Of a stretch of 64,000 nucleotides of DNA, positions 16,141-50,536 are shown piece after piece; position 1 is the first letter of the stretch, and each line of letters opens with the position of its first letter. Source of the stretch: an uncultured Gammaproteobacteria bacterium (GTDB lineage Bacteria; Patescibacteriota; Patescibacteriia; Magasanikbacterales; UBA922); the NCBI GenBank assembly GCA_964566225.1, contig CAZMHV010000004.1, positions 64,248 to 128,247 of the forward strand. Reading direction: 5' to 3'. The position numbers and the translations under genes were made by a program. The notes under the pieces are model-generated. The model was not told where the DNA came from. It did no database searches and saw nothing but the letters and a program-made list of their open reading frames with translations.

Positions 16141-16205
16141 ATTTGAAAATTTTGCAGAGAGAATATATGTATTGTATCTTTTTTTGAGGAGGTGAGCAAA
16201 TATTT

Positions 16206-34400: not shown

Positions 34401-35924
34401 ATGCCAAAAAGCGCAGCTTCTAAACCACGCTCGCGTGCAAAATCGTCAACTCGACGTGTTTCATCTGCGCGGGCATCTTCTTCGAGAACTCTTACTAGAG
34501 TAAAAACAAATGTTATTACTGATACAAAAATTCTCATGGCAACCATAGCGCTTTTGTTGTCTACGGGACTTTCACTTATTGCTGTACCGGCAGCCCCTGG
34601 TCAGATGCAGTTGGCCGCTGCAGCAAAATGTGGGGTGAACAAAGTTACCTATGGACGAGTTTGTGCTGCCAAAATGTATACGGGTGCACGGGTAGTCTGT
34701 CATGATGGAAGTTTTGCTGATGTTGGCGCGGGGCAGTGTTTGTCTGTCGCTGCTATTGCACAGCTGGGAAATGTTGTTTGTCAAAACAAATGCTCTGATG
34801 CTGTGGTGGTAGCTCCACAACCAAGACTTACGGTGCGTACCAATGTAGATACACCACTTGGAACCAATTTAGTTTTGGGAAGTGTAGATACCATGGTTGC
34901 TAAATTTGACTTGATCGCCTCTAATGTTGAAGATATTAATTTGCGAGATTTTGCGGTGAGTTTTCATTTGCCAGAACATTTGGCAACCGGAACTCTTCGT
35001 AATATCAGACTGTTTGATGGAGACGTTCAAGTAAGTGAAAATATTGCACATTTAGGTGGAGCTCCTACTACTTCAACTTTTCATACGGCAGTATTTCACA
35101 ATATAAATTTACGCTTATTGAGATCTCAAGTAAAAACATTGATTGTAAAAGCAGACATGAGTACGTACGAAAATAATGGATTTTTGAGTGGAGTCCGTTT
35201 TCAACCAGCTATTTTAAATACTGACTATGATCAAATGGCACCTGGAGTGCAACTTGCTGTCAATGCAGAAGGCTTGGTAAGTGGGAGCGTACTCCAATCA
35301 CGAGATATTGTGTTTATTGCAAATGCAGGTACGGTTGCTTCAGGAAGCAAAAGTGAACAATCTTTGTTAAGTACATTGTTACCACGTACTTCAGGATATG
35401 TTGGAGCCAATCAATTTGTAGTATATAGAACAAAGCTTGTAGTTATGTGGGCAGCAGATACACCAACTGGGTTTTCTGCACCAGCATCGGGACAAGTGAT
35501 TGGAAAATTTATTGTGAATAATTTTGCAAATAATGGTAACTATAATGCTACCGTACGGGCAACGAATGTAAACTTATCAAGCAATCGTATTGTTGCTGCA
35601 CAGCCAAGGACTCTCAATATTTATCGTGATTCACTTCAAAGTGTTATTTTGGCAACCACACAGTTTCAAGGAGTTGTCTCGGGAAATAGTGGGTTTGAAG
35701 ATCGTTCATTTGGTGATGTTGAAATTTCAAGCGGTGCCAATAAAACTTTTTTTGTAACATTTGATACTATAGATGCCTTAGCAAATCAAGCTCTTTTGGT
35801 CAATGTTCCTTGGTCTGTAAATGAAGTAAAATATTTTGGTCTATTGTGGAGTGATGGTGTTGTTCACGACATTGTTGCCTCAGACAATGGTCTCCCTCTG
35901 GCTCCGAAGACATTGGTTTACTAA
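34401..35924 (+). CDS. Hypothetical secreted or surface protein with a basic N-terminus and a single TM anchor.
   Basis: ORF only. K/R/S-rich N-terminus followed by a hydrophobic helix. Confidence 0.45.
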   Translation: MPKSAASKPRSRAKSSTRRVSSARASSSRTLTRVKTNVITDTKILMATIALLLSTGLSLIAVPAAPGQMQLAAAAKCGVNKVTYGRVCAAKMYTGARVVCHDGSFADVGAGQCLSVAAIAQLGNVVCQNKCSDAVVVAPQPRLTVRTNVDTPLGTNLVLGSVDTMVAKFDLIASNVEDINLRDFAVSFHLPEHLATGTLRNIRLFDGDVQVSENIAHLGGAPTTSTFHTAVFHNINLRLLRSQVKTLIVKADMSTYENNGFLSGVRFQPAILNTDYDQMAPGVQLAVNAEGLVSGSVLQSRDIVFIANAGTVASGSKSEQSLLSTLLPRTSGYVGANQFVVYRTKLVVMWAADTPTGFSAPASGQVIGKFIVNNFANNGNYNATVRATNVNLSSNRIVAAQPRTLNIYRDSLQSVILATTQFQGVVSGNSGFEDRSFGDVEISSGANKTFFVTFDTIDALANQALLVNVPWSVNEVKYFGLLWSDGVVHDIVASDNGLPLAPKTLVY

Positions 35925-35934
35925 ATAGTTTTAA

Positions 35935-35967
35935 AAAGAGTCCCTTGACCAGGGGCTCTTTTTTTGT
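35935..35967 (+). terminator. Rho-independent terminator (AGAGTCCC-TTGACCA-GGGGCTCTTTTTTTG).
   Basis: 8-bp stem plus T7. It is followed by a TATACT -10 box for the nth-like gene. Confidence 0.65.
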
Positions 35968-35984
35968 GCTATACTAGTATGCAT

Positions 35985-36623
35985 ATGAATACGCAACAAC
36001 AAAAAAAGCGAGCACACATTGTGCTCAAAGAGCTCAAAAAATTATTTCCAATAGCGGAAACGATTTTGCGTTCCTCAAACGATGTGGAGCTTTTGATTGC
36101 GGTTATGTTATCGGCCCAAACCACTGATGTGCAGGTGAACAAAGTAACAGCAAAGGTATTTGCCAAATATAAGACGCTTGAGGACTATGTAAATGCCAAT
36201 GCAGGGGAGTTTGAACAAGATATTTCTTCGGTGAATTTTTATAGGGCCAAAGCCAAAAATATTTTGGCTATGACAAAGATGCTCCACCAAAAACATGGTG
36301 GGCAGGTGCCTTCTACTCTGGAAGAATTGATTGAACTGCCCGGCGTTGGGCGCAAGACAGCAAACGTTGTGTTAGGATTTATTTATGGGGTAGTGGAGGG
36401 GATTGCTGTAGATACACACGTGACTCGTTTAGCGCACAAGTGGGGTCTCACAAATTCGACTGACCCAAAAAAAATTGAGCAGGATCTTATGCAGATACTG
36501 CCCAAAAAAGAATGGCATGATTTTACCCTTCGGGTGATTGATTATGGTCGCAAGTATTCACCAGCGCGGAAGGTGGGGGATGATGGTGATCCGATTTCGG
36601 TGAAGCTAAAAAAAGTGGAGTAA
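35985..36623 (+). CDS. nth: Endonuclease III-like HhH-GPD DNA glycosylase. No C-terminal Fe-S Cys cluster was seen.
   Basis: HhH motif LPGVGRKTANVVL and catalytic-region D. Start choice (35979 or 35985) is uncertain. Confidence 0.7.
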   Translation: MNTQQQKKRAHIVLKELKKLFPIAETILRSSNDVELLIAVMLSAQTTDVQVNKVTAKVFAKYKTLEDYVNANAGEFEQDISSVNFYRAKAKNILAMTKMLHQKHGGQVPSTLEELIELPGVGRKTANVVLGFIYGVVEGIAVDTHVTRLAHKWGLTNSTDPKKIEQDLMQILPKKEWHDFTLRVIDYGRKYSPARKVGDDGDPISVKLKKVE

Positions 36624-36632
36624 TGGTGTGTG

Positions 36633-37616
36633 TTAACGGAGTTCTTCAAAATATTTTTTGGCAAGAGCCACGTTTACGGGTCGGTATCGAATCGTTTCAA
36701 GCAGGTGTGGATTTACTCCTGCTCTTTTTATTTGTTGTTTAATTTGATCTTTTGAAAAGGATTGTAATTCACTGTCAGTATTAGCAGGAAGAATAATATC
36801 TGTTTTGGCGAGCGAATCTGCCAAAAAGAGAAGTCCTACTTCTCGGGCCATCCCAGTACCTTGGTATTTTTGTGCAAGTGTTTGTACTTCTTGTGTACAC
36901 AAATCTGTTTTTAAAAATGGAAAACCATATCCACCATCAAATTGTTTTGACAGGTTGCGTACAATTCCAAGTTCGTAGTGAAGTTCGGCACACTGTGCAA
37001 TGTATTCAATTTGGTGTGGAGTGAGACCGAGTTTTTCTTGGAGCCATTTTTGAAAAAGTTCTCCTCGGATAATGGCACCTGAGCTGGCTTCGTGACGATT
37101 GAAGCTGTGAAATGTACCATCGGGTTGGTGCCAAGTTCTGCGAACAGCAAATTTTCCAAAGTCGTGAAGGGGAATAGATATTTGCATTAAATCATGTTTG
37201 GATCTGCCATCAATGGTTTCGTTTTGAAGATCAGTAAGAATATGTTCTTGGTGCCAGGTAAGCAGGTAGTTTGGTACTTTGGTACGAAAAAATTCTTCAA
37301 ATTTTTTTGAATGCGTGAGAATACCCCATTGATGATATTGGGGTGCATGTTCCTGTGGATCATCAATATTTGTATAAAAAGATTCAATTTCTGGCGTGTG
37401 TTCTCCATTTCCCAAATAGTACAAAATAATACCTTTGGCAAATTCAGGAAAGTGAATCCACAAAAGTTGTAAAATATCGGCTGTTTCAAATTCTTGCCCA
37501 CTTTTTTTTATTTCAATGTGTGGATCAAATTCATTTGTACCTTGGAGGGGTGGTGTTTCAGTTGAATTGTTATTTGAATAAATTTCAAAAAGTTCAGGAC
37601 TGATTGTATGTTCCAT
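36633..37616 (-). CDS. HD-domain-like hypothetical protein.
   Basis: LHDFGK motif. ORF of 327 aa. Confidence 0.45.
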   Translation of the reverse strand: MEHTISPELFEIYSNNNSTETPPLQGTNEFDPHIEIKKSGQEFETADILQLLWIHFPEFAKGIILYYLGNGEHTPEIESFYTNIDDPQEHAPQYHQWGILTHSKKFEEFFRTKVPNYLLTWHQEHILTDLQNETIDGRSKHDLMQISIPLHDFGKFAVRRTWHQPDGTFHSFNRHEASSGAIIRGELFQKWLQEKLGLTPHQIEYIAQCAELHYELGIVRNLSKQFDGGYGFPFLKTDLCTQEVQTLAQKYQGTGMAREVGLLFLADSLAKTDIILPANTDSELQSFSKDQIKQQIKRAGVNPHLLETIRYRPVNVALAKKYFEELR

Positions 37617-37805
37617 AAAAAATATTCAAAAGCGAATATGTATATGATACAGGGAAGTAGGGGAGGGAGGCAAGTTCTACATCACTACAAAAAATATTTT
37701 AAGAGAAAAGTCTCCAGAGAGAGTTGAAAACTTTTGTGAAAAAATAATTTTGTAGTGGTGTGGAACGCGGAGGAGGGGAGGTCCTCCGCTATCCTCCTAG
37801 TTGGG

Positions 37806-38204
37806 TTATCGTCGACCATTCGGCGACGGGACGATTCGTCCCTTGGCCAGGTCGGTGAGATCAGGCTGATTTGAGGCGGTCACCTCGAACCAACCACGCT
37901 TCTTTGCTTGACGAGCTGTGTTCGGCGAGATGCCGAACATTTTCATCAGCATGGAAGTGGATTGCCCTTGCTCGGCAGTGGAAAGTCGGACGAATCCGAC
38001 GTTTCCCCTGCGTTGAAAAATGCCGGGGCGATGGTACTCCAGGTGGAAGTACCCTCGCTCCTGGGCTCGCCAGAGTGTGACTCGAGATGCCTTGAGCCCA
38101 CACTCGTGGGCTTTCTGGCAGAGCTCCTTCAGGGGCAAGGCCTTTGCCTCGTCCGAGAGGAAGACCTTCATTTCCTTGATCTCGAAAAAGGCATTTGGCT
38201 CCAT
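37806..38204 (-). CDS. High-GC small protein with two excisionase/AlpA-like (MerR-superfamily HTH_17-like) helix-turn-helix motifs.
   Basis: LKELCQKAHECGLKASRVTLWRAQERGYF and SMLMKMFGISPNTARQAKKRGWF. An AAGGAAA RBS lies upstream of ATG 38204. A nested palindrome lies just upstream. Confidence 0.4.
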   Translation of the reverse strand: MEPNAFFEIKEMKVFLSDEAKALPLKELCQKAHECGLKASRVTLWRAQERGYFHLEYHRPGIFQRRGNVGFVRLSTAEQGQSTSMLMKMFGISPNTARQAKKRGWFEVTASNQPDLTDLAKGRIVPSPNGRR

Positions 38205-38384
38205 CTGGGAGTTTCCTTTTGTAATGTGGGCGGAATTACCCTTCACAGATTTCAAGTGATTGAAATATCTCAAGGGTAATTTCAAATAATGATATCTTCT
38301 CAACTTTTTCCTCCTTTTGACAAAGAAAAAAGTAATCGAATGGGCGAAGCGGATGTGCGGTCCGTTCTTCGCCCTGGCGTGTGC

Positions 38385-38642
38385 TTACACATAGTCAGTG
38401 TCGGGGTCACTTACCGACAAGACTTTGGTCTCAGCGTCCAGCTGTTGAGCAATGGTGCCCCAGCGGGGTCGCATTGCTCTTCCTCTGAAAAAGATCATGC
38501 CCACACGTACTGTGAGCCGATCTCTACATCTTTCGCATTTCACCACGAAGTCGTGGTTTATTGCGAAAGGTGGGACTTCCCACTTTGAGAACCCACAGCT
38601 GCAGTGGGTCTCGGTATGAGCCTGTTCCCACCAGAGGCTCAT
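38385..38642 (-). CDS. Possible small zinc-ribbon protein (HCSCGF…CERCRD).
   Basis: Four Cys in a CxC…CxxC arrangement. No clear RBS and the region is highly structured. Confidence 0.25.
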   Translation of the reverse strand: MSLWWEQAHTETHCSCGFSKWEVPPFAINHDFVVKCERCRDRLTVRVGMIFFRGRAMRPRWGTIAQQLDAETKVLSVSDPDTDYV

Positions 38643-39157
38643 ATTCTTGATTTGTTTCTGGAGTCGACGTCGTTGTCGACGTCTATACTGCCAAGAACAA
38701 AATAAGTCTAATTGGAGTGCGTATCGGAGGATGTCTGATGAGATCCTCCAAATCCACTCCGGTGGTCTGGCTTTTTGGGTTGTGACTTTCACCAAAAAGC
38801 GTTTTTTTGTAGGCGCCCCCCCTGGCCTAGTCCAGGGTCCTTCCGGGGGGGAAAGGAACCCTGACGTGCCGATGTTGAAGAAAGTTTCTTCTTCGACAAC
38901 GGCTACCCCCGACCCGTCTGGAGAGGTCTCCGATGTTGGGTGGTAGTAAGCCAACCCATCTGTAAGCCCCCACCTCCAGGGCCTATCAAGGGTACCGTTT
39001 CGGCACCCCTTGTGCCCAAGGTCTGGGGAGTGTCCACACCCCCCCGCACAATATCGGGGGGTTGTGATGACCTCTCTTTTTTGTGTGGTAGCCAGTTTGG
39101 AGGAAGTAGAGGTCTCCAGGTTGACCTCCTCTTCTTCTTGTTGTTGGAGCTTAAGTA

Positions 39158-39451
39158 TCATCCTTCTTTCCACTTTCCCTCTCCAGGGGAAAGGCCAAAT
39201 ACCTCCTCCCACTCAGGACGGAGGTTTGCGGGGGACTCCGCTGATGAGGCCTGTGAAATGAGGAACAACATCGCCTCCTTCCGAGGCGACTTCTCGGGTT
39301 CCGCGGCGATAAGCTGGCTTCCGATCACCTTGAGGGGGACGTACCCCCTTCGGTGGTAGTAGACAGCCACTTCCTTCACCACGCGAACGAAGTGGGGGGA
39401 AGAGATCCCTGCAGGAATCTCAATAATCGCCGCAATGAGAGTCTCGATCAT
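39158..39451 (-). CDS. Small hypothetical protein (about 98 aa).
   Basis: A GAGGAG RBS lies 6-7 nt upstream of ATG 39451. Confidence 0.3.
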   Translation of the reverse strand: MIETLIAAIIEIPAGISSPHFVRVVKEVAVYYHRRGYVPLKVIGSQLIAAEPEKSPRKEAMLFLISQASSAESPANLRPEWEEVFGLSPGEGKWKEG

Positions 39452-39624
39452 GGACTTTCTCCTCGCGCTGCCCCTGGCGCTGTTAGGGTTGATGGGATGG
39501 GGCATTATTGTTGCCATTACTCTGGTAAAAATAATGTTCCATCTCATCTTGTTTTCTTCCCGGATTTGCTTATCGCATTCACTGCCCTTGTATAAAGACA
39601 GCAGAGCGACAAGCAATTTTCAAT

Positions 39625-39742
39625 ACGCACGTCTTGGTAAACCTGCGCTTGCCAAAGAAAATAATATTTTTATTCACTTTGGCAATATTCAATTGTAAGG
39701 ATCTTCACTCTCTACACCACATTCATTAGGCTGCTGTAACAT
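39625..39742 (+). repeat. 118-bp direct repeat, copy 1. It is identical to 46009-46126 and followed by about 100 bp of diverged similarity.
   Basis: Exact identity read in the sequence (ACGCACGTCTTGGTAAACCTGCGCTTGCCAAAG…GCTGCTGTAACAT). Confidence 0.9.
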
Positions 39743-40070
39743 CCTTCATCCAATTTTTCACTTTGCTTTTGTGAAACCAAAGTTACTTTTGCATTTGGGA
39801 CTTTCTTGTTGTAGTAGCGACTTGTTAAATTTGATCTGCATCAAATGTTGAAAGTTGTTGCTACATAATCTTGACAGGAATCTTTTTTTCTGTTAAAGTG
39901 TAAGTAACATGATAGTGTTCGTAGATAACTACGGATAACCTACCTTCGCAGGATAGTTCCGACTCAGTCGGGACTATTTTTTTATTTATCCACAGAAAAT
40001 GCCCTCACGGGACGTCCAACTTTAACTTTTCTTCAGGTACTTTGTGTTATGCTCACTTTCGGTGGACTCA

Positions 40071-40144
40071 AGGGCCCGTAGTTTAATGGTAGAACACTAT
40101 CATGCGAAGGTAGGGGCACGGGTTCGATTCCCGTCGGGTCCACC
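40071..40144 (+). tRNA. tRNA-Arg, anticodon GCG, with encoded CCA.
   Basis: Hand-folded cloverleaf. Acceptor GGGCCCG/CGGGUCC, D-arm GUUU…GAAC with GG, anticodon stem CUAUC/GGUAG with loop AUGCGAA, T-arm ACGGG-UUCGAUU-CCCGU, and a 3' ACCA. Confidence 0.85.
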
Positions 40145-40457
40145 ACCCAAAGCAATCTTGTAAACACAAGGTTGTTTTTGTTTAGAAAGAATTTCTCCCC
40201 TTCACAAACTTCAACGAATTGAAATTTCTGCAGGGTTGGCGAGTGAGTGCTTCTCTCTCGCCGACCGGTGCGTTTGGCTTCTCGCCGTGGAGGATACTGC
40301 TTCCTCTTGGCTCACCACTTTGTTCTTTTGGAACATGCAGGTGACTCATACCTTGATTTTCAGCATAGGATTTTGTGCTGAGTGAAACCCGTGAGTGGCA
40401 GCTTGTCCCGAGACCTTGTCGGTCTCTGAGTGGGATGTTACCAGGTTTCTGTGTGGT

Positions 40458-41420
40458 TTAGCCGCGGTCGATCTCAGCCTCGGGCAGGATGTGCCCGGCG
40501 GCTCGAAGCTCGGCCTGACGGCCGCCGTTGGTGAACCAATGGGGTGCGTCCTTGGTTACGCTATCCTGGCGGTACGGGATGGTTCCGTCCACCAGGGCGT
40601 GCGTGGCCCAGTACTCCCGGCTCTGGTTGCCGCGCTCGTTCGGGTCGCCCGGGAAGGGCTCCCCAATATGGCCGACGTAGGCCTTGTGCAGGGAGTAGCT
40701 GTCTCCCCTGCGTCGAAGAACGATGCTGAGATACTGGCACGTTTCGGCCTTACGGCCGCGGACGAACCGACCCCAGTTGTGCCCACCGAGATGGGCGTAA
40801 AACACTTCATCGTGGTCTCGAGTCTTCACGCACGCGGTTCGGCCGAAGCCACGCCGTCCAGAGTCGAACTCGCGCAGGACGTAGTCGGCGCCCATCCCTG
40901 GGGCCACTTCGTCGATTTCGATGACATTGACACAATCGACCATGAAGTCGTATTGCTTCAGTGTCATCGAGTCTTGGATTCGGGGAGCGATGTAGACCTG
41001 TTGGCCAGTGGCAGTCTGAACTACCTTCGGCCTGCGGGTCATCGACATCAGCCACTCTTCGGGGGTAGACCCCTGAAGCCATGGCCGGTCGAAGAACTTC
41101 TTCTTTGCCACCTCTGGGTTGGGAAACTGCTCAGTCGCCTCGATCAGGAGGAGGAACTCTCCCCAGCTGATTGTGTGTGTGTCGGAGTGATCCTGGCCAC
41201 GGGCCAAGATCTGGATCTTTTGGGATCCCTTCACTCCTTGGAAGAATTCGCCCCAGTGTCGAATCTCCCGGTTGAGGGGCCGCTCACCCGGGATGACCAC
41301 GCGTTGAAACATTTGGTTCTTTTGATTGAACCGATAGTTTTCTCCGAAGTTGGTGAAGTCTACGACCACGTCATGGGTTCTACAGAAGAAGTACACTTTC
41401 ATCTGGAGATTCTTGAACAT
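40458..41420 (-). CDS. Hypothetical protein (320 aa). It is the last gene of the AAA+/vWA cassette.
   Basis: Diverse composition. The overlapping plus-strand 372-aa ORF looks antisense. No confident motif. Confidence 0.5.
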   Translation of the reverse strand: MFKNLQMKVYFFCRTHDVVVDFTNFGENYRFNQKNQMFQRVVIPGERPLNREIRHWGEFFQGVKGSQKIQILARGQDHSDTHTISWGEFLLLIEATEQFPNPEVAKKKFFDRPWLQGSTPEEWLMSMTRRPKVVQTATGQQVYIAPRIQDSMTLKQYDFMVDCVNVIEIDEVAPGMGADYVLREFDSGRRGFGRTACVKTRDHDEVFYAHLGGHNWGRFVRGRKAETCQYLSIVLRRRGDSYSLHKAYVGHIGEPFPGDPNERGNQSREYWATHALVDGTIPYRQDSVTKDAPHWFTNGGRQAELRAAGHILPEAEIDRG

Positions 41421-41573
41421 CTTTTTTTCTCGACATGCCGGGGAACTGCCGGTGCAGTCGAAGCGTGCGTCTCAATTGCATTGCTTCGATCTCTTTTGCA
41501 AAAAAATTTGTAACAGAGATCGAAGGGGAAGGTGCATTTCCCTTCGAGTGCTTTGGCTCCTCATAGGAGCAGG

Positions 41574-42242
41574 TTAGAGGCGCGTGGTCACCTTCTCGAC
41601 GCGGTACCAGACGTACCGATCGAAACGGAAACCTTGGCCTCCACCCCCGCGAAACTCGATTTTCGCGTGGTCATTCTCCTTGACTGCCTCGCTCCGCAGG
41701 AGAGGGAGTTCCTTGGCGGAGAGGCGCTCGAAGCCTGCCTCGGGCACTATGGCCACGAGAGCTTCGAAGCCTCCATTCTGGAACTCCTGCTCCGTCTGCT
41801 CGGCGTTCGGAATGTCGCGGTGCGTGACCACCACATCCGAGCCGAATAGTCGAGCAAGCTCGGCAGTCTGCCGAGTGGTCGGGGCGAACCGGGAGAGCCA
41901 CATGATGCGTTTGTGGCCTCCCGAAACCGGCGATACCTCATCGAATTTCTTGCGGATCTCGAGGATCCGGTCGAAACCGAGAAAGGTGCTCCGTTCGTGC
42001 GACATCATTGGCCAGAGGGGAAAAACCCCCTTTCGGCAAAGTCCGTCGAGGATGCTGGTGGGTGCCACCAGCACGATCTCATCGAACTTGCCGGATTGTA
42101 TCCGAGCCATGATGTCGTTCACCCCATCCGGGCTGAACGGCCGATCGTCAATCGTGACGTCGACCTCTCCCATAATCCTTTGAAGCTCCTGCATCTTCCC
42201 TTCATCGGGGTGATGGCGTGAGAGCCAGAGGATTTTCTTCAT
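41574..42242 (-). CDS. Hypothetical protein (222 aa) made of two tandem homologous halves of about 105 aa (KKILWLSRHHP… and KRIMWLSRFAPT…).
   Basis: Internal duplication seen in the translation. The overlapping plus-strand ORF is S/R/P-rich and looks antisense. Confidence 0.5.
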   Translation of the reverse strand: MKKILWLSRHHPDEGKMQELQRIMGEVDVTIDDRPFSPDGVNDIMARIQSGKFDEIVLVAPTSILDGLCRKGVFPLWPMMSHERSTFLGFDRILEIRKKFDEVSPVSGGHKRIMWLSRFAPTTRQTAELARLFGSDVVVTHRDIPNAEQTEQEFQNGGFEALVAIVPEAGFERLSAKELPLLRSEAVKENDHAKIEFRGGGGQGFRFDRYVWYRVEKVTTRL

Positions 42243-43094
42243 AGCAGGGACCCTTTCGTAAATGTTTTCTCACCACACTAACCAAAATTTTTTTTGATCA
42301 AAGCGGTGAGGGGCTAACTTTTACATCGTTGCGCAACGACGTTTGCTAGCCCACCCGAGTGCATTCCATTTTGTCTTTTCCCTGAAAAAAAGACTTTAGC
42401 TACTCACCTCATTTTACTGAGGCTTTCAGGCTCTTGAAATTTCCTGCAAGGAAGTGCAGGGGGTGATTTTTCCGTTTGGAACCCATTCAAGAGTGCAGAA
42501 CTCGGCGCGTTGCCGAAAATTTGAACTTTCTTTGGTCTGCTGAAGAAAGTCGAGGTCGGATGGAGGTTTACCATCTTTTTCCCACCGAGGTAGGTAACTC
42601 TTTACGAGAAGGACACGACCATGCCCTTCAGGTAGGGTTTGCTTTGTTTGATAAAGCTTGCCGGGATTTTCACCCGCATCAGTGTTGGTCTTACACAGTT
42701 TCTGAAGATAACAGTAGCCCTGTCCAACAACGTGTATAATTTCCCCCAATTCGCGAGAGGGTAAGCCATACAAACTTAAGTAGACTGTCACGCCTACCAG
42801 ATGCCGAACCTTGTCACCCGGTTCGGTAGGATGGGATTTATTTTCTGTCGGTTCCCTTCCCGACTTTTAGCTTGGTGGATTCATTTTATTAGCCTCCTTG
42901 TAAGTGTTTGGGACCACCATTCTTTTTCCAAAAATTTTTTAGAAAAAAGATGCTGGGGGGGAAGTATTGTGCTTTCTTCCCCGTGTCAGTGTCCGAGTGC
43001 TTATCGGACGGGTCGCTCAGTCTCACGCGAGAAAGAGCAGAAAATTCCGTTTTATTTTTACAAGGTCTCGGGATGACCTTGTTCCTGGTTGAGT

Positions 43095-44504
43095 TTAGAA
43101 TCTGTCGATACCGACACCGCCCGTCGAACGGGCGAACTCGACCAATGATTTGTTCGCCACCTCCATGGCGAAGCCGTGGACCCGGGTGCCCGGGATTTCT
43201 GACTTCTTGAGAGAGGAAACGGACTTGTCATCGTCGGTCAGGAGAACGATCTCCGGCCGGTAAAGAGCTTCACCAGCCTTGATTTTTTCGTCCATGAATT
43301 TGTGGGCCGCGCGGACCGAGGCAGGAATGTCCGTGCCACCGCCCGTGAAGTTGCTCGCCGCGAATTTCTTGATAAGTTCGCGAGCTTCCGCAGGAGTAGC
43401 CGCGTGCATGACCTTCCCTAAGGAAGTGTCGAACACGCTAATCCACACTTCCGCGTCTCCGGTCAGGACTGCCTTGAGGCGGTTCATCACCACCCCGCTG
43501 GCCTTCCAATGCCTCTTGCCCTTCATCGACCCGGAGCCGTCGAGAAGGATGAAGATCGCCTGCCTTTTCTCCACCGTAGTGACTCGCTCCCGGACCTGGA
43601 GCTGACCACTCACCGCTTGGTAGAGAAACAAAGTGTGGTTTTGCTGCCGCGTCGCCCAGTCAGTGTGGCTCACACGGTTCAGCTCGCCCATGTGCTTGAT
43701 CGGTCGACGGCGAGTTTCCTCGCCTGCCAGATTCACTTCCTGCTTCTTCTGCTTGCGCGTCTGAAACGGGGTGAACTGATCCATCTGGCGGGAGATATCG
43801 AGCATCACCCGACGGTCGCATCCCGCCACGAGGTCCTCGGCCACCTGCAGCTTATTGAGCTGTTGGTGACCTGAACTCTGGCCATCAGTCTCAATCTCAT
43901 GATTCGCCCCGTCGGGGTCCATCATGTCGAGCTCTTCCTTGGAGAGACTTTCGACCATGTCCATGATCTCGTGAAGGGATTCGGCGACCCCCTCTGTTCG
44001 TTCTGATTCTGCGAAGATAGGGAGCGGCTCACCCCCACCTTCGCTAGCCGCGCCCTGCCCGCCCTTTTGCTGGCTCAGGAGCTTCAATAGCCCCATTGCC
44101 TGTTCGAGTGGGCTTGCGCCGGGGAACTTTGACAAGTCCACCGTCTGCAAGAAGTCGCAGACGTTCTGATGGTACCTCATCGAGTTCTCGGCGTGGGCGG
44201 TCACGGCCTCTGCACGATTGGTTGTACAGGTTTCATCCCCAAAAAGGCCTCGCACCTTGGTGGGGATCTGCCAGTTGCCATACGAGTCGGGAGCCGGCAG
44301 CTGCTCCTCAATTCGTCGCGTCACTTCGTCTCGGTAGCTCGACGGAGGGTTGACGCGTCCCCCCGCCGCCAGATTTGTGAGATCGGCCACAAGGTCTGGG
44401 GCGAACCCCTTGAGGCCAATCCTCCCCGCCATCTCCTTCATCTCCTCCTTTGACGGAGGAATGTAGGCAGCGGGCGGAGAAGTGCGGAACGTAAACTGGC
44501 TCAT
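43095..44504 (-). CDS. vWA-domain protein, CobT-like, with an acidic linker and a C-terminal MIDAS vWA domain.
   Basis: MIDAS motifs ILLDGSGSMKG, GGGTDI and LLTDDD. It is a paralogue of the 132..1820 protein. Confidence 0.7.
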   Translation of the reverse strand: MSQFTFRTSPPAAYIPPSKEEMKEMAGRIGLKGFAPDLVADLTNLAAGGRVNPPSSYRDEVTRRIEEQLPAPDSYGNWQIPTKVRGLFGDETCTTNRAEAVTAHAENSMRYHQNVCDFLQTVDLSKFPGASPLEQAMGLLKLLSQQKGGQGAASEGGGEPLPIFAESERTEGVAESLHEIMDMVESLSKEELDMMDPDGANHEIETDGQSSGHQQLNKLQVAEDLVAGCDRRVMLDISRQMDQFTPFQTRKQKKQEVNLAGEETRRRPIKHMGELNRVSHTDWATRQQNHTLFLYQAVSGQLQVRERVTTVEKRQAIFILLDGSGSMKGKRHWKASGVVMNRLKAVLTGDAEVWISVFDTSLGKVMHAATPAEARELIKKFAASNFTGGGTDIPASVRAAHKFMDEKIKAGEALYRPEIVLLTDDDKSVSSLKKSEIPGTRVHGFAMEVANKSLVEFARSTGGVGIDRF

Positions 44505-44738
44505 CTTGGTCTCCTCCCGCTTGCGCGGATTTTCTAGTTGAGTTTCTCGAAGCGTTTGCTTCGACCTTTATTTCAAACTTTTTTGTTTGATATACAGGTC
44601 GAAGGGTGAGCGTTGTGCATACTCACCTTCCAGTGCTTGCTCCTCGTAGGAACTTGGTTGATTTTACCAACCGTCAATGCCCATAGAGCCGGGATCAGCT
44701 TTCCAGGATTCAAGCCTTACCTGGAATGGCTTTCTTTT

Positions 44739-45840
44739 CTACAGGCGGGTGTGCTTGAGGCTGAGCTTCTGAGCCTCGGCCGACTTCTGGGAAGCAGCCT
44801 CCCGGAGCTGCTTGCGCTTTTCCGTGAGACCATCCGTGACCTTGAGATTGGCCACCTTGTCCTGGAAGGAGAGGAGCCGCAAAGCCGCCTGGTTGCACTT
44901 GACCGGACTCTGCGTCCGATCAGCCGCCTCGAGGTCAGAGAGCAAGCTGTTCAGCTCGCCCTCAGCCTCAACCAGCAACACCTCGGCCGTCGCCCGCTCG
45001 CTCGCCTTGTCGAGCTCGGTTTTCAGGTTCTCGGCCAAAGCCTCGAACCCATCGACGAACTTGAGGTCAAGGAGATCGACCTTCTCGACCTTGGCCGAAC
45101 CGCGCAGCGCTGCAGAGGTCTTGACGACTCCAAGCGCGTGCACGGCCGACCGCGGCGAGATGGGCCGCCCCTGCTCGGCGAGCTTGCCGAGCATCTCGGC
45201 GAGCACCGAGCTCATCCCGTTGAGGTCGGCTCCCGGCAAGCGGGGCGCGACCTTCACGAACAGCTCGCTGTAATCGGCCGCCTTATAGGACGGCCATTTC
45301 ACATTGAGTTGAATCGGGAATCGCTCGATCAGGGCGTGCGCAGCGGGGCCGAGCTCGCTGATTTCCGCTGGGTCTTTGTTGGTGAGGGCGATGATGACCT
45401 TCGTCTTCATCGCGAACACCTGTGACCCCTTTCGGAGCTTGCGGGCGGTCAGCGTGTCCTTGAGCGCGAGGAGAACCGACGCCGGAGCGTCAAAGAGCTC
45501 CTCGAACACCGCGTAGGGTCGCGCGAGGAAGCTCAGCTCCGGGAAGTACCGGAGCACCTTCTCGGTCTCGAGCGCCCGGAAGTCGAGGCCGCCCCAGAGG
45601 GTAGCCTCGTCCATTCCCTCCCCGAAGCTCTGAACGTGGACCTCGTTATCGAGGTCCGTGACGATCTCGGCCAGAGCGGTCTCTATCATCTCGGACTTCC
45701 CGTGCCCCCCGGGTCCCCAGAGGAGCACGTTTTTGCCCGACGTGATTGCCAGAGCAAGGACCCGGGCCAGGTCCTCACACTTGATGAAATCCCGCTCGAG
45801 GCGAGACTTCAACTTGTCGAAGAGATTAGTAACCACGCAA
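44739..45840 (-). CDS. MoxR/CobS-like AAA+ ATPase (AAA_5 type).
   Basis: Walker A LLWGPGGHGKS, Walker B/sensor VIIALTN, and arginine-finger region. GTG start 45840 with a GGAGG RBS 6 nt upstream. The longer ATG-initiated extension is probably not translated. Confidence 0.7.
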
Positions 45841-46008
45841 ACCTCCGTAGCGCGATTGTTGCGCCTTGGATTGGGCTTGCCCTGGGGAGGGCAAAGCACG
45901 TTTGTGTTTCTCCTCCCGCAGAGCAAAGCCCTGGTTTGGGTCCCCATTTCTATTTTTTTTCAAAAATAGTCAGGGAACCCAAACAGTTGCGTAATGACCT
46001 AATATTAA

Positions 46009-46126
46009 ACGCACGTCTTGGTAAACCTGCGCTTGCCAAAGAAAATAATATTTTTATTCACTTTGGCAATATTCAATTGTAAGGATCTTCACTCTCTACA
46101 CCACATTCATTAGGCTGCTGTAACAT
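46009..46126 (+). repeat. 118-bp direct repeat, copy 2 (identical to 39625-39742).
   Basis: Exact identity. Confidence 0.9.
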
Positions 46127-46906
46127 TTTTTACTCAATTTTTCTTTGGAGTCTTGTGAGGCTCAAAATACTTGTGAGTTCAAAACTTTCTTGTTGTAGTA
46201 GCGACTGCCTTTCCCTCTATACAATCTTGCGACTGTTTAAAGAGAAGGCGCACTCGGTACTACTCTCGTTCTGAGGCGAGTGTAGACTGACCGCGAGGGA
46301 GTTGCTGCTCGACTTTCGTCAAGGGCATCTATCAACCTCCGCCGGTTCTCTTAGTCCGGTCGGATGACCGGATCAAGAGCAATATCTTACCCGGTCATTC
46401 GACCGGGCAAGGGTTCAGAATTGAAAATTTCTTTCACCGATAGGAGTCTCTCTCCTTCACATTGGTCAAAGAAATTAGTTCATTGTAATGGTTTGGGGAC
46501 TCAACCTTTTTGCACCCTGTCTCGCTCAACTCTCTCTCTTGAGGGCAAAGCAGGTATTGTTTAAAAAGGGAATCGTGCAAACCGTTTAGTCCTAGACCCT
46601 TCCCAAAGGCAAGCATCGCTTTGGTACTTTTGATCAAGGTCTAAACGTTTTGCGCGAAAGTGTAAAAAACGCTCTTTCTGGTGAGAGAGCGTTTGAGTTT
46701 GGTAACTCTATCTGGGGCTCTCTCTTTCCTTTGATAGTTCAAGTGTTTGAGTTGTGGTTACCTGTTCTTGGTCTTTCAGCGTAACGAGCTAGTATAACAT
46801 AAAATCACAAATATGTCAATACTGAACCATGCATATACAAAATATATATATTAAATTTATCTAAATTTAGCTAAATATATAAAAACTCAATATGTAAAAT
46901 AACCAC

Positions 46907-46935
46907 TTGACATATTAATTCAAATATGGTATAAT
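46907..46935 (+). promoter_or_regulatory. Consensus sigma70-type promoter (TTGACA, 17 bp, TATAAT) for the TrmB-like gene.
   Basis: Perfect hexamers with a 17-bp spacer, 24 nt upstream of ATG 46959. Confidence 0.5.
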
Positions 46936-46958
46936 ACATGTACAATAAGCCAAAAAAT

Positions 46959-47738
46959 ATGATTGACCAAAACTTAAAAAACCTGCTGGTTGAGGCAGGA
47001 TTAGAATCAAGTTCTACAGAAATTTACCTTATTTTAGCCCAAAAAGGTGAATTAACCGTGTCTGAACTTATCAAAGACACATCGCTTTCTCGCACCACTG
47101 TTCACAGTGCACTCATGGATTTACTAGTCAAAGAGCTGGTTTTATACCGCAAAGAGGGGAGAAATGCCTACTATAAACCAGCACACCCCAGTGGATTAAT
47201 GCGCCTTTTGGAAGAAAAAAAGCGTCAACAAAGCCAATTTGAAGCGAGTTTCCAAGAGGGCCTTGGTTCCTTGGCCGGTATGTTTAACCTGGCCAACAAC
47301 CGTCCTGGGGTGCGATTTTATGAGGGGAAAGAGGGGGTTATTGAAGCGTATGAAGAAATTTTGACGCTCGGTGCGCCTATTGAAAGTATTGAAGACAAGG
47401 GAGAAATGGCTGAATTTATTCCTGAGTATTTTCCCAAGTTTATTCAAAAAAGAATTCAAAAGAAAATATTCAACAAGGTGGTGGTTCCTTCGAGTAATAC
47501 CATCAATGTAAACAGCCCAGAAGAATTTCGTGAAACGAGAAGTATTGATGTTGCACAGTTTCCTTTTTCTATGGATATAAAAATATGTGGAAACACTGTT
47601 CTTTTGGTAACTTTAAAACAAAAACAGGCCATTGCCATTCGCATAGATGACCCGCTTATTGCAGAAAATTTCAAAATTTTATTTCAGTTTTTGTGGAACT
47701 CTGCCGCAATATCTCATGCTCCTGCTTCTGTCTCTTGA
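46959..47738 (+). CDS. TrmB-family transcriptional regulator.
   Basis: N-terminal winged HTH (TEIYLILAQKGELTVSELIKDTSLSRTTVHSALMDLLVKELV). An alternative ATG lies at 46938. Confidence 0.6.
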   Translation: MIDQNLKNLLVEAGLESSSTEIYLILAQKGELTVSELIKDTSLSRTTVHSALMDLLVKELVLYRKEGRNAYYKPAHPSGLMRLLEEKKRQQSQFEASFQEGLGSLAGMFNLANNRPGVRFYEGKEGVIEAYEEILTLGAPIESIEDKGEMAEFIPEYFPKFIQKRIQKKIFNKVVVPSSNTINVNSPEEFRETRSIDVAQFPFSMDIKICGNTVLLVTLKQKQAIAIRIDDPLIAENFKILFQFLWNSAAISHAPASVS

Positions 47739-50536
47739 AGGTGAACGAGTGTTGTTTCTAAACGATTGAGGGTGTAGGCATTTGTATCAAGTTTTGCAAT
47801 TTCACGGTGCTGCCCAATATATTCTTGAAAGGGAACCATACGAAATCCTTGGTCTTGCTGTAGAATGTGTTGGATTTCTGTTTGAACATCGGTTTCTTTT
47901 CCCATCACAAAGGCGAGGGGCACATTGTCTTTGGCATAATCTTCATGTTCAAAACCAGGACCAAGAATAATATAAGTATAAAATTTTTCTTTTTGTTTGA
48001 CTTCAAGATCTTTTACGATTTTGGCCATTTCGGCTAGTCGATAATACCAGCCATCATTATCGCGAATACTGTCATCAAAATATATACCACCTTTTTTGAG
48101 AATACGCATCATTTCAAGCACAAAACCAACATATTCTTCATCTCGTTTATACACGGTTGATCGTGCTCCAAAAGCAATATCAACAGAATTTGATTGTATT
48201 GATTGTACGGAATCAAAATCTCCAAGAAGCATTCCCTCGGGGTGTGCAGGGACTGCTTCATAACCAGAATGATGACGTAAAAACATTTTGGGTTCAGCAC
48301 AAAATATTTTTTTTATTTCCATGAGTGCTGGATCTGTAAGAGAAATTTTGTTGGTATATTGAACCGTTCCATGACTATCTCGTGTACTTATGGTGGATGG
48401 TACGGTATGGGTGACCAAAAATTCTTGTGCAATTTCTGCAAGAATCAATTTCAGTTCTTCTGGATTTTGGGTGAGTCGTTTAATTCGATCTTCTGCATAG
48501 GTAAAAGTATCTTGTGATGTTTGTCCGTTTGAAATAAGAAGTGTTTTGGCAAGTGCATCACAAAAAATTGATTGTACTGCGGGTGTACATACAAATTCAG
48601 CGGGCAGTCTTTTTTTGAGAGTCTCCCAATCAATACTGTTTTCTATAAAACGAGAAATTGGATAATAGAGTGTATCAGCAAGACCAATATCTATATAATG
48701 TTCCATCACAGGTGACTCTGCTCGTTCTGCTTTACTTTGTCCACTTCCTGGTCCAAGTTCCAAAAGTATTTGTTTGGTGTCAGTTGCTCGGTTTTGTAAG
48801 AGTGAAAGAATATCAAATCCAAAACGGCGTATATACTCTTCATTGCTTCTATCAACTCGCCAGTGAATTTCTGGTATGGGTTTGAGTTGTCCACGTTCTT
48901 GTAGTACACGTAAGTAAATTTCTTTTTTGTGTGGACTCATGTTTGCCAGTTGCAAAGAATATTCTTGTAAATCAATTGTGCCCCTTTCTTGTTGGCGAAG
49001 AATCTCTGCAACAAAAGCATATTCACCTGCCAAAAATTTGTGTTCGAGGGTTTCTCGCTGAATATCTTCGACTTGTTTTTGTATAACAGCACTTTCATCG
49101 TTCCCTCGATCGAGTGCATCTTTGGTACGAAACAAAAATTCTTTTGCGCGCACTGTAAAAGCCGCTGCAAAAGAGTGATCTGTCAAGTGAAGCTCCTTCC
49201 CATGCAGTTGACGCATTTGTTCACCTTGGTAAGCACCAGAGAGTAAAAGTTCATGATACGCATTCAGTAATTTTTTGGCATTTTCCTCGGAAAGAGTTTC
49301 AATCACATCAACCACTTCTTCAACTCCGCTTGGCTCAAATTCCATAATGACACAGAGTTTCAAAAAAGGTTCTTGAAAGGTACGGATATTTTTTTGGATA
49401 ACTGAAAAACGGTCTGTGTTTTTTATTTTTTTCAAAAATGTATAGAGCCAAAATTGTTCATGAAGGGTAAGAAAATTTGGGACAATTCCGCATTCTTGTA
49501 AAATTTTATGTTGAAAAAATTTTTGATGATATTCGGTTAAAAAGGTTTCTTTGGTAATTTCAAATTCAGTGGTACGGTCAGATTTTTTCATTACCAAATC
49601 TTCGGCTGTTATTTCCATTATTTCTGATTCAAATTCGTGTTCACTCGAAAATCTGCCACAGTAAATGTAGCCTACCAGGGCACCTTGTTCATCGAGGAGG
49701 CCTAGCTTTCCATCTGGAGTAAGACGAACTGCTTTTACGGCATCTGTTTGTCCCTGCAAAACATATTTTTGTCCAAGATATTCAAGTTTTTGTTTATCAA
49801 TCGGGATCACTCTGTCTTCGAGAAGGTAGAGAATTCGTGCATAGGACATTTCAAGTCCTGGGTGAGTATTGGTGCGTATTCTCTCGAGTAACTCTTGGGC
49901 AGATTCGGTAGCACCAATTTTTTTGAGTACATTGGTGACTTGAGCTGTAACAAATTCTGGAACAACATGTTCAAATGCTTCGAGTAACAGTGGAATATCT
50001 TTGGACTGTAATTCTACATTTTGTGCAATATCCCACATTTTGGAAAGGTCGTATTGTGCTGCAACCGAAGTAAATGAAAAACGACTATTTTTTTCTGCTT
50101 CTCCCCATTCAGATTCTGTTTCGGGGTCACGTTCTATGAAAGTTTTTTCTGTTGTTGTTTGGTTTTCCAAATCAGAGCCATATTCTTCTTGCACCTCTGT
50201 GTCTATACACCCATACGTTTTTTTGAGTAAAAAAAGATAGCATTCACGTTTTTGTGATTCAGAAATGGATGCAATGTTTTTTGAAAAAGATTCAATGAGT
50301 GATCTCAGAAGAACATTTTCATCATTGTATCCTTCGTCACTTCCGTCATAATTAAATTCGTCTTCAAAGTTTGGGTCTTTTCGTGCTTTTTGTATGATAC
50401 TTGGATACTCTTGAAGGTACTGTTCGATTTTTTGGATTGCCTCAGTATCCCAAATCAAATGTTTCACAAACGTTTGTGCCGGGTGAACAATTTTGGGAAC
50501 TTCACTTTTTGGTTGCACTTCGTTAAATTCTTTCAT
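47714..50536 (-). CDS. Large hypothetical protein (940 aa) with a probable class I SAM-dependent methyltransferase-like region (LLELGPGSGQS).
   Basis: Long ORF with host-like composition. A glycine-rich motif I-like segment is present. Confidence 0.45.
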   Translation of the reverse strand: MKEFNEVQPKSEVPKIVHPAQTFVKHLIWDTEAIQKIEQYLQEYPSIIQKARKDPNFEDEFNYDGSDEGYNDENVLLRSLIESFSKNIASISESQKRECYLFLLKKTYGCIDTEVQEEYGSDLENQTTTEKTFIERDPETESEWGEAEKNSRFSFTSVAAQYDLSKMWDIAQNVELQSKDIPLLLEAFEHVVPEFVTAQVTNVLKKIGATESAQELLERIRTNTHPGLEMSYARILYLLEDRVIPIDKQKLEYLGQKYVLQGQTDAVKAVRLTPDGKLGLLDEQGALVGYIYCGRFSSEHEFESEIMEITAEDLVMKKSDRTTEFEITKETFLTEYHQKFFQHKILQECGIVPNFLTLHEQFWLYTFLKKIKNTDRFSVIQKNIRTFQEPFLKLCVIMEFEPSGVEEVVDVIETLSEENAKKLLNAYHELLLSGAYQGEQMRQLHGKELHLTDHSFAAAFTVRAKEFLFRTKDALDRGNDESAVIQKQVEDIQRETLEHKFLAGEYAFVAEILRQQERGTIDLQEYSLQLANMSPHKKEIYLRVLQERGQLKPIPEIHWRVDRSNEEYIRRFGFDILSLLQNRATDTKQILLELGPGSGQSKAERAESPVMEHYIDIGLADTLYYPISRFIENSIDWETLKKRLPAEFVCTPAVQSIFCDALAKTLLISNGQTSQDTFTYAEDRIKRLTQNPEELKLILAEIAQEFLVTHTVPSTISTRDSHGTVQYTNKISLTDPALMEIKKIFCAEPKMFLRHHSGYEAVPAHPEGMLLGDFDSVQSIQSNSVDIAFGARSTVYKRDEEYVGFVLEMMRILKKGGIYFDDSIRDNDGWYYRLAEMAKIVKDLEVKQKEKFYTYIILGPGFEHEDYAKDNVPLAFVMGKETDVQTEIQHILQQDQGFRMVPFQEYIGQHREIAKLDTNAYTLNRLETTLVHLQETEAGA

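Follow-up and report, generated by a model that had tools for sequence, protein, structure and literature searches.

The region at 37.6-50.5 kb of a 64,000-nt stretch of a Patescibacteria metagenome-assembled genome (positions 64,248 to 128,247 of contig CAZMHV010000004.1, assembly GCA_964566225.1; hereafter the window) is probably, at a rough probability of 0.6, one copy of a Patescibacteria MoxR-vWA operon that has a leader RNA, lies within a strongly folded GC-rich block and is accompanied by a duplicated piece of its own leader. The unusual part of this locus is found at the level of RNA and composition: the leader motifs, the inter-cistron elements and a folding that runs from end to end, together with a separate codon composition, are new. 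The proteins, judged by family models, are of a known kind, a putative MoxR-vWA remodelling pair with a DUF3228-like partner. An earlier reading, made from the letters alone and called the original prediction here, had seen the same DNA as an AAA+ ATPase plus vWA cassette bounded by two identical repeats; the ATPase-vWA pair with its uncharacterised accessory genes stood up to the analysis, and the repeat-bounded organisation did not. The coordinates of all features are collected in Table 1.

For comparison, 49 loci were fetched from species-representative genomes and several more from assemblies, and all open reading frames (ORFs) around MoxR were clustered. The related loci are denoted by L-numbers; the nearest relatives of the window are L056 and L034, and both carry the unit. 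MoxR was present in 34 loci, the vWA protein in 30, a third protein termed X in 27, a TrmB-family regulator in 18 (up to 20 by another count) and a large protein, F4/F24, in 16. The conserved neighbourhood consists of F4/F24, the divergent TrmB gene, 1-3 kb between TrmB and the first cistron without a conserved ORF, X, MoxR, vWA and another ~1 kb without a conserved ORF. The TrmB homologue keeps its divergent position in 18-20 loci, and F4/F24, which adjoins it in 16 of the related loci, has a GNAT domain near its C-terminus in 4 of the 10 members scanned. X is located directly upstream of MoxR in most loci, and downstream of vWA in the window and about seven others. The five-gene order of the original prediction was kept in other genomes as far as MoxR-vWA is concerned, whereas the position of X varies, the gene of the 222-aa protein is optional and a predicted 121-aa ORF is not shared. 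By sequence, the unit appears to be one copy of a MoxR-vWA module that occurs in about 36 Patescibacteria loci, among them members of the Uhr-, Levy- and Saccharibacteria, CPR2 and others. We found no description of the MoxR-vWA-X module or of its leader in the literature.

The first cistron encodes a MoxR-class AAA+ ATPase, for which bpMoxR was the best Pfam model (PF20030, 44.6 bits against a gathering threshold of 27, E=1e-11), with AAA_5 also above threshold (PF07728, 29.2 against 22). The protein of the second cistron matched the VWA families, with an intact MIDAS motif (DGSGSM...GGGT...TDDD; the DxSxS, T and D residues are conserved), and both assignments of the original prediction were confirmed in this way; CobT was not matched. 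The GTG start with a GGAGG ribosome-binding site had also been predicted correctly: because the homologues are ~360 aa long and the upstream ATG (45947) falls within the conserved leader RNA, GTG 45836 is the true start and yields a protein of 365 aa. The Walker A motif GPGGHGKS is invariant across 30 MoxR homologues. Altogether, 496 homologues reached E<=1e-3 among the scored candidates, and the 120 that were listed are 61-75% identical to the window protein (plus one identical protein) and ~360 aa long; those with a taxon name belong to the Patescibacteria (Kaiser-, Magasanik- and Doudnabacteria) or are unclassified 'bacterium' entries. The vWA protein is 42-69% identical in more than 30 loci of the candidate phyla radiation (CPR) and always follows MoxR, and at mean pairwise identities of 62% for MoxR and 60% for vWA, the two rank among the best conserved proteins of this locus. 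The N-terminal ~300 aa of the vWA protein form an uncharacterised region, for which a profile search against the PDB returned nothing beyond the vWA domain; a TROVE/Ro60-like reading of this region found no support in that search. The nearest solved structure to MoxR is RavA (E=6e-5).

The block would be transcribed from a promoter divergent to trmB. The putative minus-strand promoter, TTGACA-17-TATACT (46819-46791), has an extended -10 element and matches the consensus in 11 of 12 positions, and the putative plus-strand promoter of trmB, TTGACA-17-TATAAT (46907-46935), matches it in 12 of 12. Both hexamers are kept in the leaders of L056 and L034, and further blocks of the window leader are conserved there. 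Between trmB and the operon we also noticed an AT-rich 32-nt palindrome (46845-46896, 81% complementary), a candidate operator.

When the DNA upstream of the conserved MoxR N-terminus was aligned, it fell into two sequence families, types A and B. Type A occurs where MoxR is the first cistron (the window and 11 further loci) and is composed, in order, of GGGGACCCAAACC, a hairpin, GAGGGA, CUUGCCCCUCCCCAGGGCAAGCCCAAUCC, a covarying hairpin (loop CAACAAUCG) and GGAGGUUUGCG, after which comes the start codon; type B occupies the X-MoxR intergenic space of 24 loci. Covariance models found exactly one copy in 36 of 37 CPR sources, always abutting the MoxR start (12 of type A, 24 of type B) and including 8 loci outside the seed alignments, and found none elsewhere in the window or in the viral loci. 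The match of model R1 in the window (45833-45951) scored 117 bits (E=2e-27). Pairing was assessed with RNAalifold and with explicit pair counts, for which shuffled or slid partners served as controls. In type B, 92.6% of the cells were paired, compared with 69% for shuffled and 32-56% for slid partners, compensatory changes were seen in 12 of 16 pairs, and the covariation score was 0.669 versus 0.217. In type A (alignment A9), 95.3% of the cells were paired versus 34-60% for slid partners, with compensatory changes in 10 of 26 pairs. An independent pattern scan of metagenome contigs gave nine matches, eight of which had full model hits, and all of these eight preceded a MoxR gene.

In the window, the type A motif has a minimum free energy (MFE) of -59.1 kcal/mol (z = -5.5). 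The GGAGG of the Shine-Dalgarno (SD) site and the GGUUUG that follows it are base-paired in the consensus and in the MFE fold of the window, and an alternative hairpin containing CCUCC competes for the same strand. The leader matched none of the 4227 families of Rfam 15, against which only the tRNA of the region scored, and a scan of the region at E<=1 gave only chance-level matches otherwise. This arrangement suggests that the leader acts as a translational control element for MoxR, and the two leader types are candidates for new regulatory RNA classes.

Further structured RNA was observed between the cistrons. The element in the MoxR-vWA spacer of the window (nhmmer, E=3e-24) was also found three times in L001, twice in L029, twice in L087/L089, and in L090 and L056, and in relatives it is repeated after successive cistrons. 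In L009 and L023, an analogous repeated element between MoxR and vWA ends in a type III hammerhead candidate (~44 bits). Six hammerhead candidates were noted in the related loci (L009 5796-5850 and 7392-7447, L023 4196-4250, L005 8322-8376, L020 12995-13049 and L010 1151-1224). Their scores of 33.6-44.5 bits are all under the Rfam gathering threshold of 48.5; the core CUGAUGA/CUGACGA...GAAA...cleavage-site UH is kept in the five candidates whose sequence was read, and stem I shows compensatory differences between L005 and L020. Neither the Rfam scan at E<=1 nor a descriptor search found a hammerhead or other ribozyme in the window. Taken from these motifs, the pattern suggests a polycistronic RNA that may be cut into units with structured ends. 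A 'GGGTTCCAACT' motif near the block ends of L009 and L056 was considered as well and rejected as not general.

MoxR and vWA are more GC-rich than their flanks in every CPR locus with measurable flanks. Their GC content is mostly 0.55-0.64 and their GC content at third codon positions (GC3) mostly 0.6-0.84 (21 of 29 CPR loci), at a flank GC of 0.31-0.54; in the most AT-rich hosts the GC3 of the module is about 0.32-0.5. TrmB and F4 match the composition of the flanks. The window block has a compositional equilibrium of its own, with a GC3 of 0.7-0.84 versus 0.25-0.36 in the host (MoxR has 0.66/0.39/0.84 at the three codon positions). The original prediction had put the genes at about 62% and the backbone at about 35% GC; the contrast was real but the figures shifted, to 0.59-0.63 and ~0.38-0.41, respectively. 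Four-fold degenerate sites are saturated even in the closest pairs, and both members of such pairs keep the GC offset (e.g., L014 and L016). Since the sites are saturated and the offset nevertheless persists, simple incomplete amelioration after one transfer fails as an explanation.

Folding was scored on the sense strand in 180-nt sliding windows as z against dinucleotide shuffles. From 37610 to 46700, nearly every 180-nt window has z = -2 to -10, the interiors of all four genes included, whereas z scatters around 0 in the flanks (35000-37600 and 46700-50100). The same sharp-edged pattern was observed in L002, L001, L019 and L014, with block means of -3.1 to -3.6 in the last three compared with flank means of -0.7 to -0.95. 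The excess is present in L001 even though host and block have similar GC contents, and a GC-rich planctomycete control locus had a z of only -0.28. Folding is stronger on the sense than on the antisense strand (p = 0.014). With the protein and the codon usage fixed and only synonymous codons permuted, z was -8.65 for MoxR, -6.83 for vWA, -7.25 for the 222-aa protein and -4.97 for the 320-aa protein of the window, and -4.6 to -10 for X, MoxR and vWA in L002 and L019; the controls gave +0.31 (F24, the large protein of the window), +0.15 (AdoHcyase), +0.3 (fusA) and about 0 (F4). On these values, the synonymous sites are arranged for base pairing, which we regard as the most economical cause of the high GC3.

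Several observations weigh against our reading of the locus. The antisense strand is excess-folded too (-1.84), leaving room for selection at the DNA level, and the controls tuf, TrmB and a 327-aa ORF gave moderate permutation z of -2.3 to -3. The client of the MoxR-vWA pair is not evident from gene context, with no client operon of the nor, cbb or ldc kind near the pair, and the AlphaFold2 (AF2) model of X, built from a 4-sequence alignment, was unusable (pLDDT 48). The remaining points favour the alternative that the whole GC-rich block is a phage- or plasmid-derived circulating module, re-acquired from a GC-rich donor pool, whose composition simply reflects its origin. The IMG/VR contigs L059 (GC 0.53) and L060 (GC 0.64) carry MoxR-vWA together with a 222-like gene or X in the same order and at 45-54% identity; X includes phrog_23674 and occurs in jumbo phages, where homologues sit inside tRNA gene clusters; the contexts vary, the block lying between fusA and tuf in L002 and beside tRNA-Tyr with 170-bp tRNA-end repeats in L009; and the divergence of MoxR is uncorrelated with that of TrmB (rho 0.04), in a comparison in which the pairwise identities of TrmB and F4 are near saturation. 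Beyond these, the identity of MoxR is flat at ~60-70% across CPR classes, a STIV_B116-like gene lies upstream in L055, and short module contigs are binned into unrelated phyla.

The block is indeed not chromosomally fixed over evolutionary time, as the contexts in L002 and L009 document. Nevertheless, the viral copies reach only 45-54% identity, while CPR copies share 60-75% among themselves, and the viral loci lack the leader RNA. In the closest CPR pairs, both members keep the GC offset in spite of saturated synonymous sites, and origin alone explains neither the folding seen under synonymous permutation nor the case of L001, in which GC contents are similar. We therefore regard a circulating module as unlikely to account for the locus as a whole; phage or mobile ancestry, or ongoing exchange, is a serious partial rival that rescues neither a repeat-bounded cassette nor the folding signal.

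Two of the observations touching this alternative deserve detail. In L055, the STIV_B116-like gene (PF08960, positions 737-1051), of a family known in archaeal viruses, is located just upstream of the MoxR leader, and the MoxR of this locus is 73% identical to that of the window. The oddly binned contigs (L012, L013, L016, L025, L030, L033 and L034) are mostly short (3.7-13.7 kb; L016 has 39 kb) and were assigned to Thermoplasmata, Methanosarcinales, Bdellovibrionota, Gammaproteobacteria and Elusimicrobia, with genes typical of the Patescibacteria module; they are probably mis-binned owing to the atypical composition of the block.

The repeats that had given the original prediction its boundaries were confirmed. 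The perfect direct repeat comprises 118 bp (39625-39742 and 46009-46126, copies 6384 bp apart), and the similarity continues in degenerate form over 198 nt at 87% identity (39625-39822 and 46009-46206); no second repeat of comparable length exists in the 64-kb window. A palindrome, TTGCCAAAG-N19-CTTTGGCAA, and a weakly promoter-like site lie within the right copy, whose blocks GTGTAGAGAGTGAAGATCCTTACAATTGAAT and CAGTCGCTACTACAA can be aligned to the leaders of L056 and L034. Because the right copy lies in leader blocks conserved in these two relatives, the left copy is best read as the duplication, and the right copy as ancestral leader. Similar duplications occur in relatives: 181 bp in L001 (after MoxR and again after vWA), 358 bp flanking the block in L015, 170 bp in L009, and others in L023, L027 and L036. 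The repeats would thus mark a duplicated regulatory piece and not the ends of an element.

The alternative, an integrative or excisable element that spans the 6.4 kb from one repeat to the other, with the repeats as attachment sites or target duplication and the tRNA-Arg as cargo or target, draws on the perfect repeats at their distance of 6384 bp, on the atypical composition, on the break of an independent assembly at the repeat, and on the flanking repeats of L015 (358 bp) and of L009 (170 bp, from a tRNA-Tyr 3' end). Yet the junction from the right repeat to MoxR is ancestral, with the same leader blocks in L056 and L034, the anomalous GC content and folding run on to the left of the left repeat (GC-rich DNA at 37800-39600), and the genes stand beside TrmB and the large protein F4 in 16-20 other lineages. 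As originally stated, the unit has no integrase or recombinase, and family scans found no such domain between 36.6 and 50.5 kb. The tRNA-Arg lies outside the repeats, 329 bp off and on the opposite side from the repeat, and tRNA-Arg(GCG) is an ordinary CPR tRNA. A repeat that takes in a tRNA 3' end, as in integrative islands, is lacking in the window and occurs in the relative L009 only. We consider an integrative element highly unlikely here.

In L009 itself, the flanking 170-bp direct repeats (2628-2853 and 10310-10498) are 89% identical, the left copy starts at the 3' end of tRNA-Tyr, and in front of the right copy lies a degenerate stretch that resembles the 3' end of a tRNA; the arrangement looks like a classical case of island integration at a tRNA gene.

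An assembly artefact, with repeats or GC mosaic joining unrelated contigs, would fit a metagenome-assembled source and the sharp switch in composition, but it is barely credible: the same mosaic of AT-rich TrmB/F4 and GC-rich MoxR-vWA recurs in dozens of independent assemblies from different projects, two independent Logan assemblies have identical gene content, and the leader across the right repeat is collinear with L056 and L034. In the independently assembled Logan contig L053, all four genes are found again at 100% identity, and the contig stops exactly 30 nt (k-1) within the right repeat, which is the behaviour expected of a true repeat in an assembly graph.

The tRNA-Arg(GCG), which had been placed 329 bp inside the left repeat, was confirmed by ARAGORN and Rfam and is probably an ordinary host tRNA. 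In L019, the same tRNA is located ~8.8 kb away from MoxR, and tRNAs in general show no association with the module in the related loci; a role as cargo or as a codon-compensation device was rejected on these grounds. Between the left repeat and the tRNA, a promoter-like site, TTGACA-17-TAAAGT with a TG, was noted within 39871-39990 (+), followed downstream by an intrinsic terminator with a 14-bp stem at 39950-39980, an arrangement that hints at a small RNA (~80 nt) or a leader immediately before the tRNA. The second folded segment beyond the left repeat contains possible small genes at 39158-39451 and 37806-38303, whose codon-position GC is weakly coding, and a 275-aa ORF with flat codon-position GC; none of the related loci has a homologue of this segment. 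Likewise, blastn and tblastx detected no conservation of the spacers and the left block, except for promoter-proximal leader pieces in L034, L008 and L014.

Four of the five predicted co-directional minus-strand genes were supported. The possible 121-aa ORF (42426-42791) was not: its codon-position GC is flat (0.54/0.42/0.44), no homologue exists in more than 50 related loci outside the organism's own contig L053, and it sits in a spacer without a conserved ORF in any relative, comparable ~1-kb spacers following vWA in those loci. By these sequence measures it is non-coding. The 222-aa protein is internally duplicated, as had been proposed: its halves match each other by tblastn, and its AF2 model (pLDDT 91) consists of two similar flavodoxin-like domains, without a specific relative. 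Structure prediction of the two accessory proteins was successful only for this one and failed for the X domain of the 320-aa protein. With six loci, the 222-aa protein is an optional accessory.

The 320-aa ORF is real, as homologues and a coding pattern of GC over the three codon positions indicate. Its closest relatives align over the C-terminal ~230 aa; in relatives, X is a ~160-aa protein and the third core component of the module, found in 23 loci by tblastn and in 27 by ORF clustering, and the family comprises 718 representative clusters. A canonical member matches phrog_23674 with E=7e-24. X can be connected only weakly to DUF3228, by hhalign (probability 55%, E=1e-4) and, via an FWxxHA motif, by PDB 4fbd and 2pd0. 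Among large phages, X is carried by jumbo phages of ~350-380 kb (GAP32, CBB, XbC2, Kaldavass and relatives) and by Pseudomonas phages of ~174 kb such as Astolliot; unannotated homologues of ~40% identity lie at 275687-276160 of the Cronobacter phage GAP32 (L057) and at 79385-79855 of Astolliot (L058), in which the X gene adjoins an RNaseH-like gene. The neighbours of X in GAP32, an ATPase and a 420-aa protein, were considered as MoxR and vWA and rejected, being neither.

Two functional readings of the proteins had been offered. The first, a CobS/CobT aerobic cobaltochelatase pair as found in many phages, could point to weak similarities to phrog_249 ('porphyrin biosynthesis', E=3e-5) and to TIGR02442 (E=1e-4). 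The latter match, however, reaches 20.9 bits where the cut-off demands 779, neither a CobT nor a CobS_N domain is present, and cobalamin or CobN genes are absent from the window and its relatives, so that on the family scans this reading appears effectively refuted. The second, a conflict or defence system of the vWA-MoxR ternary kind that depends on nucleoside triphosphates (NTPs), would make X and the 222-aa protein new effectors or sensors. It is suggested by the best Pfam model, bpMoxR, which was built from those systems, by the three or four components with variable accessory genes and by the homologues in phages. Against it, we found no VMAP, iSTAND, FtsH, beta-propeller or effector domain, the third gene encoding a DUF3228-like domain of ~160 aa instead, the vWA protein has no C-terminal fusion, PADLOC gave no hits, and the conservation of MoxR and vWA is the opposite of the rapid diversification that conflict systems typically undergo (Kaur, Burroughs, Iyer & Aravind 2020, PMC7159879), among whose carriers that study lists no Patescibacteria or Parcubacteria. 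We judge a conflict system distinctly unlikely.

Table 1 Features of the MoxR-vWA locus and its surroundings in the window.
Feature	Position	Strand	Remarks
Second GC-rich, strongly folded segment	37610-39620	-	Mostly non-coding; z -2 to -10.7; beyond left repeat
Left repeat copy	39625-39822		Probable duplicate of leader segment; upstream (minus strand) of second GC-rich folded segment
tRNA-Arg(GCG)	40072-40145	+	ARAGORN and Rfam; in AT-rich DNA free of excess folding, with a folded GC-rich segment on either side
320-aa protein	40458-41420	-	C-terminal core of ~120 aa (residues ~175-293) is the conserved X domain
222-aa protein	41574-42242	-	Tandem duplication of a flavodoxin-like alpha/beta domain with long beta-hairpin
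Structured spacer	42243-43094	-	MFE z = -9.6; no codon periodicity; includes the unsupported 121-aa ORF
vWA protein	43095-44504	-	469 aa; VWA_CoxE, VWA_2; C-terminal vWA domain
Structured inter-cistron element	44594-44730	-	In the 234-nt MoxR-vWA spacer; local z -4 to -6
MoxR-class AAA+ ATPase	44739-45836 (ORF 44739-45947)	-	PF20030, PF07728; 365 aa from GTG 45836
Type A leader RNA motif	45837-45951	-	~115 nt; covarying multi-helix; covariance model hit; GGAGG SD paired
Long structured 5' leader	45952-46790	-	~0.95 kb from predicted promoter to MoxR start; MFE z = -6.2; holds right repeat
Right repeat copy	46009-46206 (perfect 46009-46126)		Apparently native part of leader; blocks align to L056 and L034
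Divergent promoter region	46791-46935		Consensus scan, predicted
TrmB-family winged-helix regulator	46938-47738	+	Pfam TrmB E=4e-8; divergent from operon; GC3 0.36, host-like
Large protein F4/F24	47714-50536	-	940 aa; GC3 0.26, host-like; no excess folding

Elsewhere in the window, a second GC-rich island (1-6000, GC ~0.6) contains ORFs at 132-1820, 2031-4037 and 5034-5720 (all +), which comprise a further vWA protein of 562 aa and ORFs of 668 and 228 aa, with no Pfam matches beyond vWA. Its folding windows have z -2 to -6 and its synonymous-permutation z values are -6.6 and -9.7; a partner ATPase may be encoded immediately before the first position of the window. A 35-nt direct repeat (86% identical; 4222-4256 and 4919-4953, 697 bp apart) lies in a strongly folded stretch of this island (z to -8). 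GC-rich patches at 16200-17800, 19600-20100 and 54380-55300 show z to -13.6 (at 17820) and -12.3 (at 19980), and the AdoHcyase gene between two of them (17987-19399) is unremarkable. A SAM-I riboswitch match at 16707-16822 (-), ~1.2 kb from this S-adenosylhomocysteine hydrolase gene, scored 44.5 bits against a gathering threshold of 44.4.

If the locus is a MoxR-vWA operon as we propose, its polycistronic RNA would comprise, in this order, the ~0.95-kb leader ending in the type A RNA, the RavA-like MoxR, the inter-cistron element, the ViaA-like vWA protein, the spacer, the 222-aa cistron and the 320-aa cistron with X. By analogy with RavA-ViaA and NorQ-NorD, MoxR hexamers and the vWA adaptor would form an ATP-driven machine for remodelling or metal insertion, with X as a possible client or co-factor. 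TrmB may control transcription of the operon, and the leader would gate the translation of MoxR by pairing both the SD site and the start region, with the CCUCC-containing hairpin as a possible switch. The high GC3 would then result incidentally from selection for a polycistronic RNA that is tightly folded and probably both long-lived and processed, and the 118/198-bp repeat would be a segmental duplication of a regulatory leader piece in front of the second folded segment, not an attachment site.

A more far-reaching idea, which we offer tentatively and would not yet favour, is that the 5-9 kb block represents an undescribed RNA-centred expression unit, an end-to-end folded polycistronic RNA that is gated by its leader and cut into stable monocistronic RNAs. 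If true, the shaping of synonymous sites and spacers for folding would explain the GC-rich codons, and cutting would be carried out by the inter-cistron elements, by hammerheads in some lineages and possibly by an unrecognised self-cleaving or processing motif in the window. Other GC-rich islands in this genome are of the same style, and such units could be a general strategy of Patescibacteria for a class of genes, serving, for example, a very long mRNA life, survival of RNase attack, or export or packaging of RNA.

Patescibacteria have tiny genomes with few conserved genes of unknown function, and a three-protein MoxR-vWA-DUF3228-like machine kept at 60-75% identity throughout the group probably has a role that is central to their biology. 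The leader types and inter-cistron elements are testable candidates for new regulatory or catalytic RNA classes. Whole genes written in codons that are arranged for pairing, far from host composition, are unusual for cellular genes, and the module bears on how mRNA structure constrains codon choice. GC islands are usually read as horizontal transfer and can lead to mis-binned contigs; the codon arrangement of this block bears on how such islands are interpreted.

Among known protein systems, the module resembles RavA-ViaA of E. coli, NorQ-NorD and CbbQ-CbbO in that the gene next to and after that of a MoxR-class ATPase encodes a protein whose C-terminal vWA domain has an intact MIDAS motif; it differs from them by its remote sequence similarity (E=6e-5), the unique ~300-aa N-terminal region of the vWA protein, the third, DUF3228-like component and the embedding of the pair in a block of structured RNA. 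With the CobS/CobT-like pairs of phages it shares an AAA_5 ATPase, a vWA partner and relatives on viral contigs, but it remains below the family cut-offs, and no MoxR relative was found in 50,697 GenBank phage records. With the vWA-MoxR ternary systems (PMC7159879) it shares bpMoxR as the best model and three or more components; in contrast to these, it has neither the defining third components nor effector fusions, is conserved rather than diversifying, and occurs in CPR bacteria with reduced genomes, not in multicellular lineages.

At the RNA level, the leader is similar to SD-sequestering riboswitches and mRNA leaders: it is a conserved multi-helix element of the 5' untranslated region with compensatory changes, in which the SD and start region are predicted to pair and an alternative hairpin to be mutually exclusive with that pairing. 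Unlike these, it belongs to no Rfam 15 family and has two different structures, one where MoxR is the first cistron and one where it is the second. Type III hammerheads between bacterial or phage genes are matched by the six candidates in related loci, two of which are located exactly between MoxR and vWA, while the window has a different element at the same inter-cistron position. Finally, the excess folding through coding sequence, measured against controls that preserve the encoded protein, is reminiscent of RNA viruses with genome-scale ordered structure; here, however, it belongs to a DNA-encoded block of 5-9 kb in a bacterial chromosome, with sharp edges against unfolded genes.

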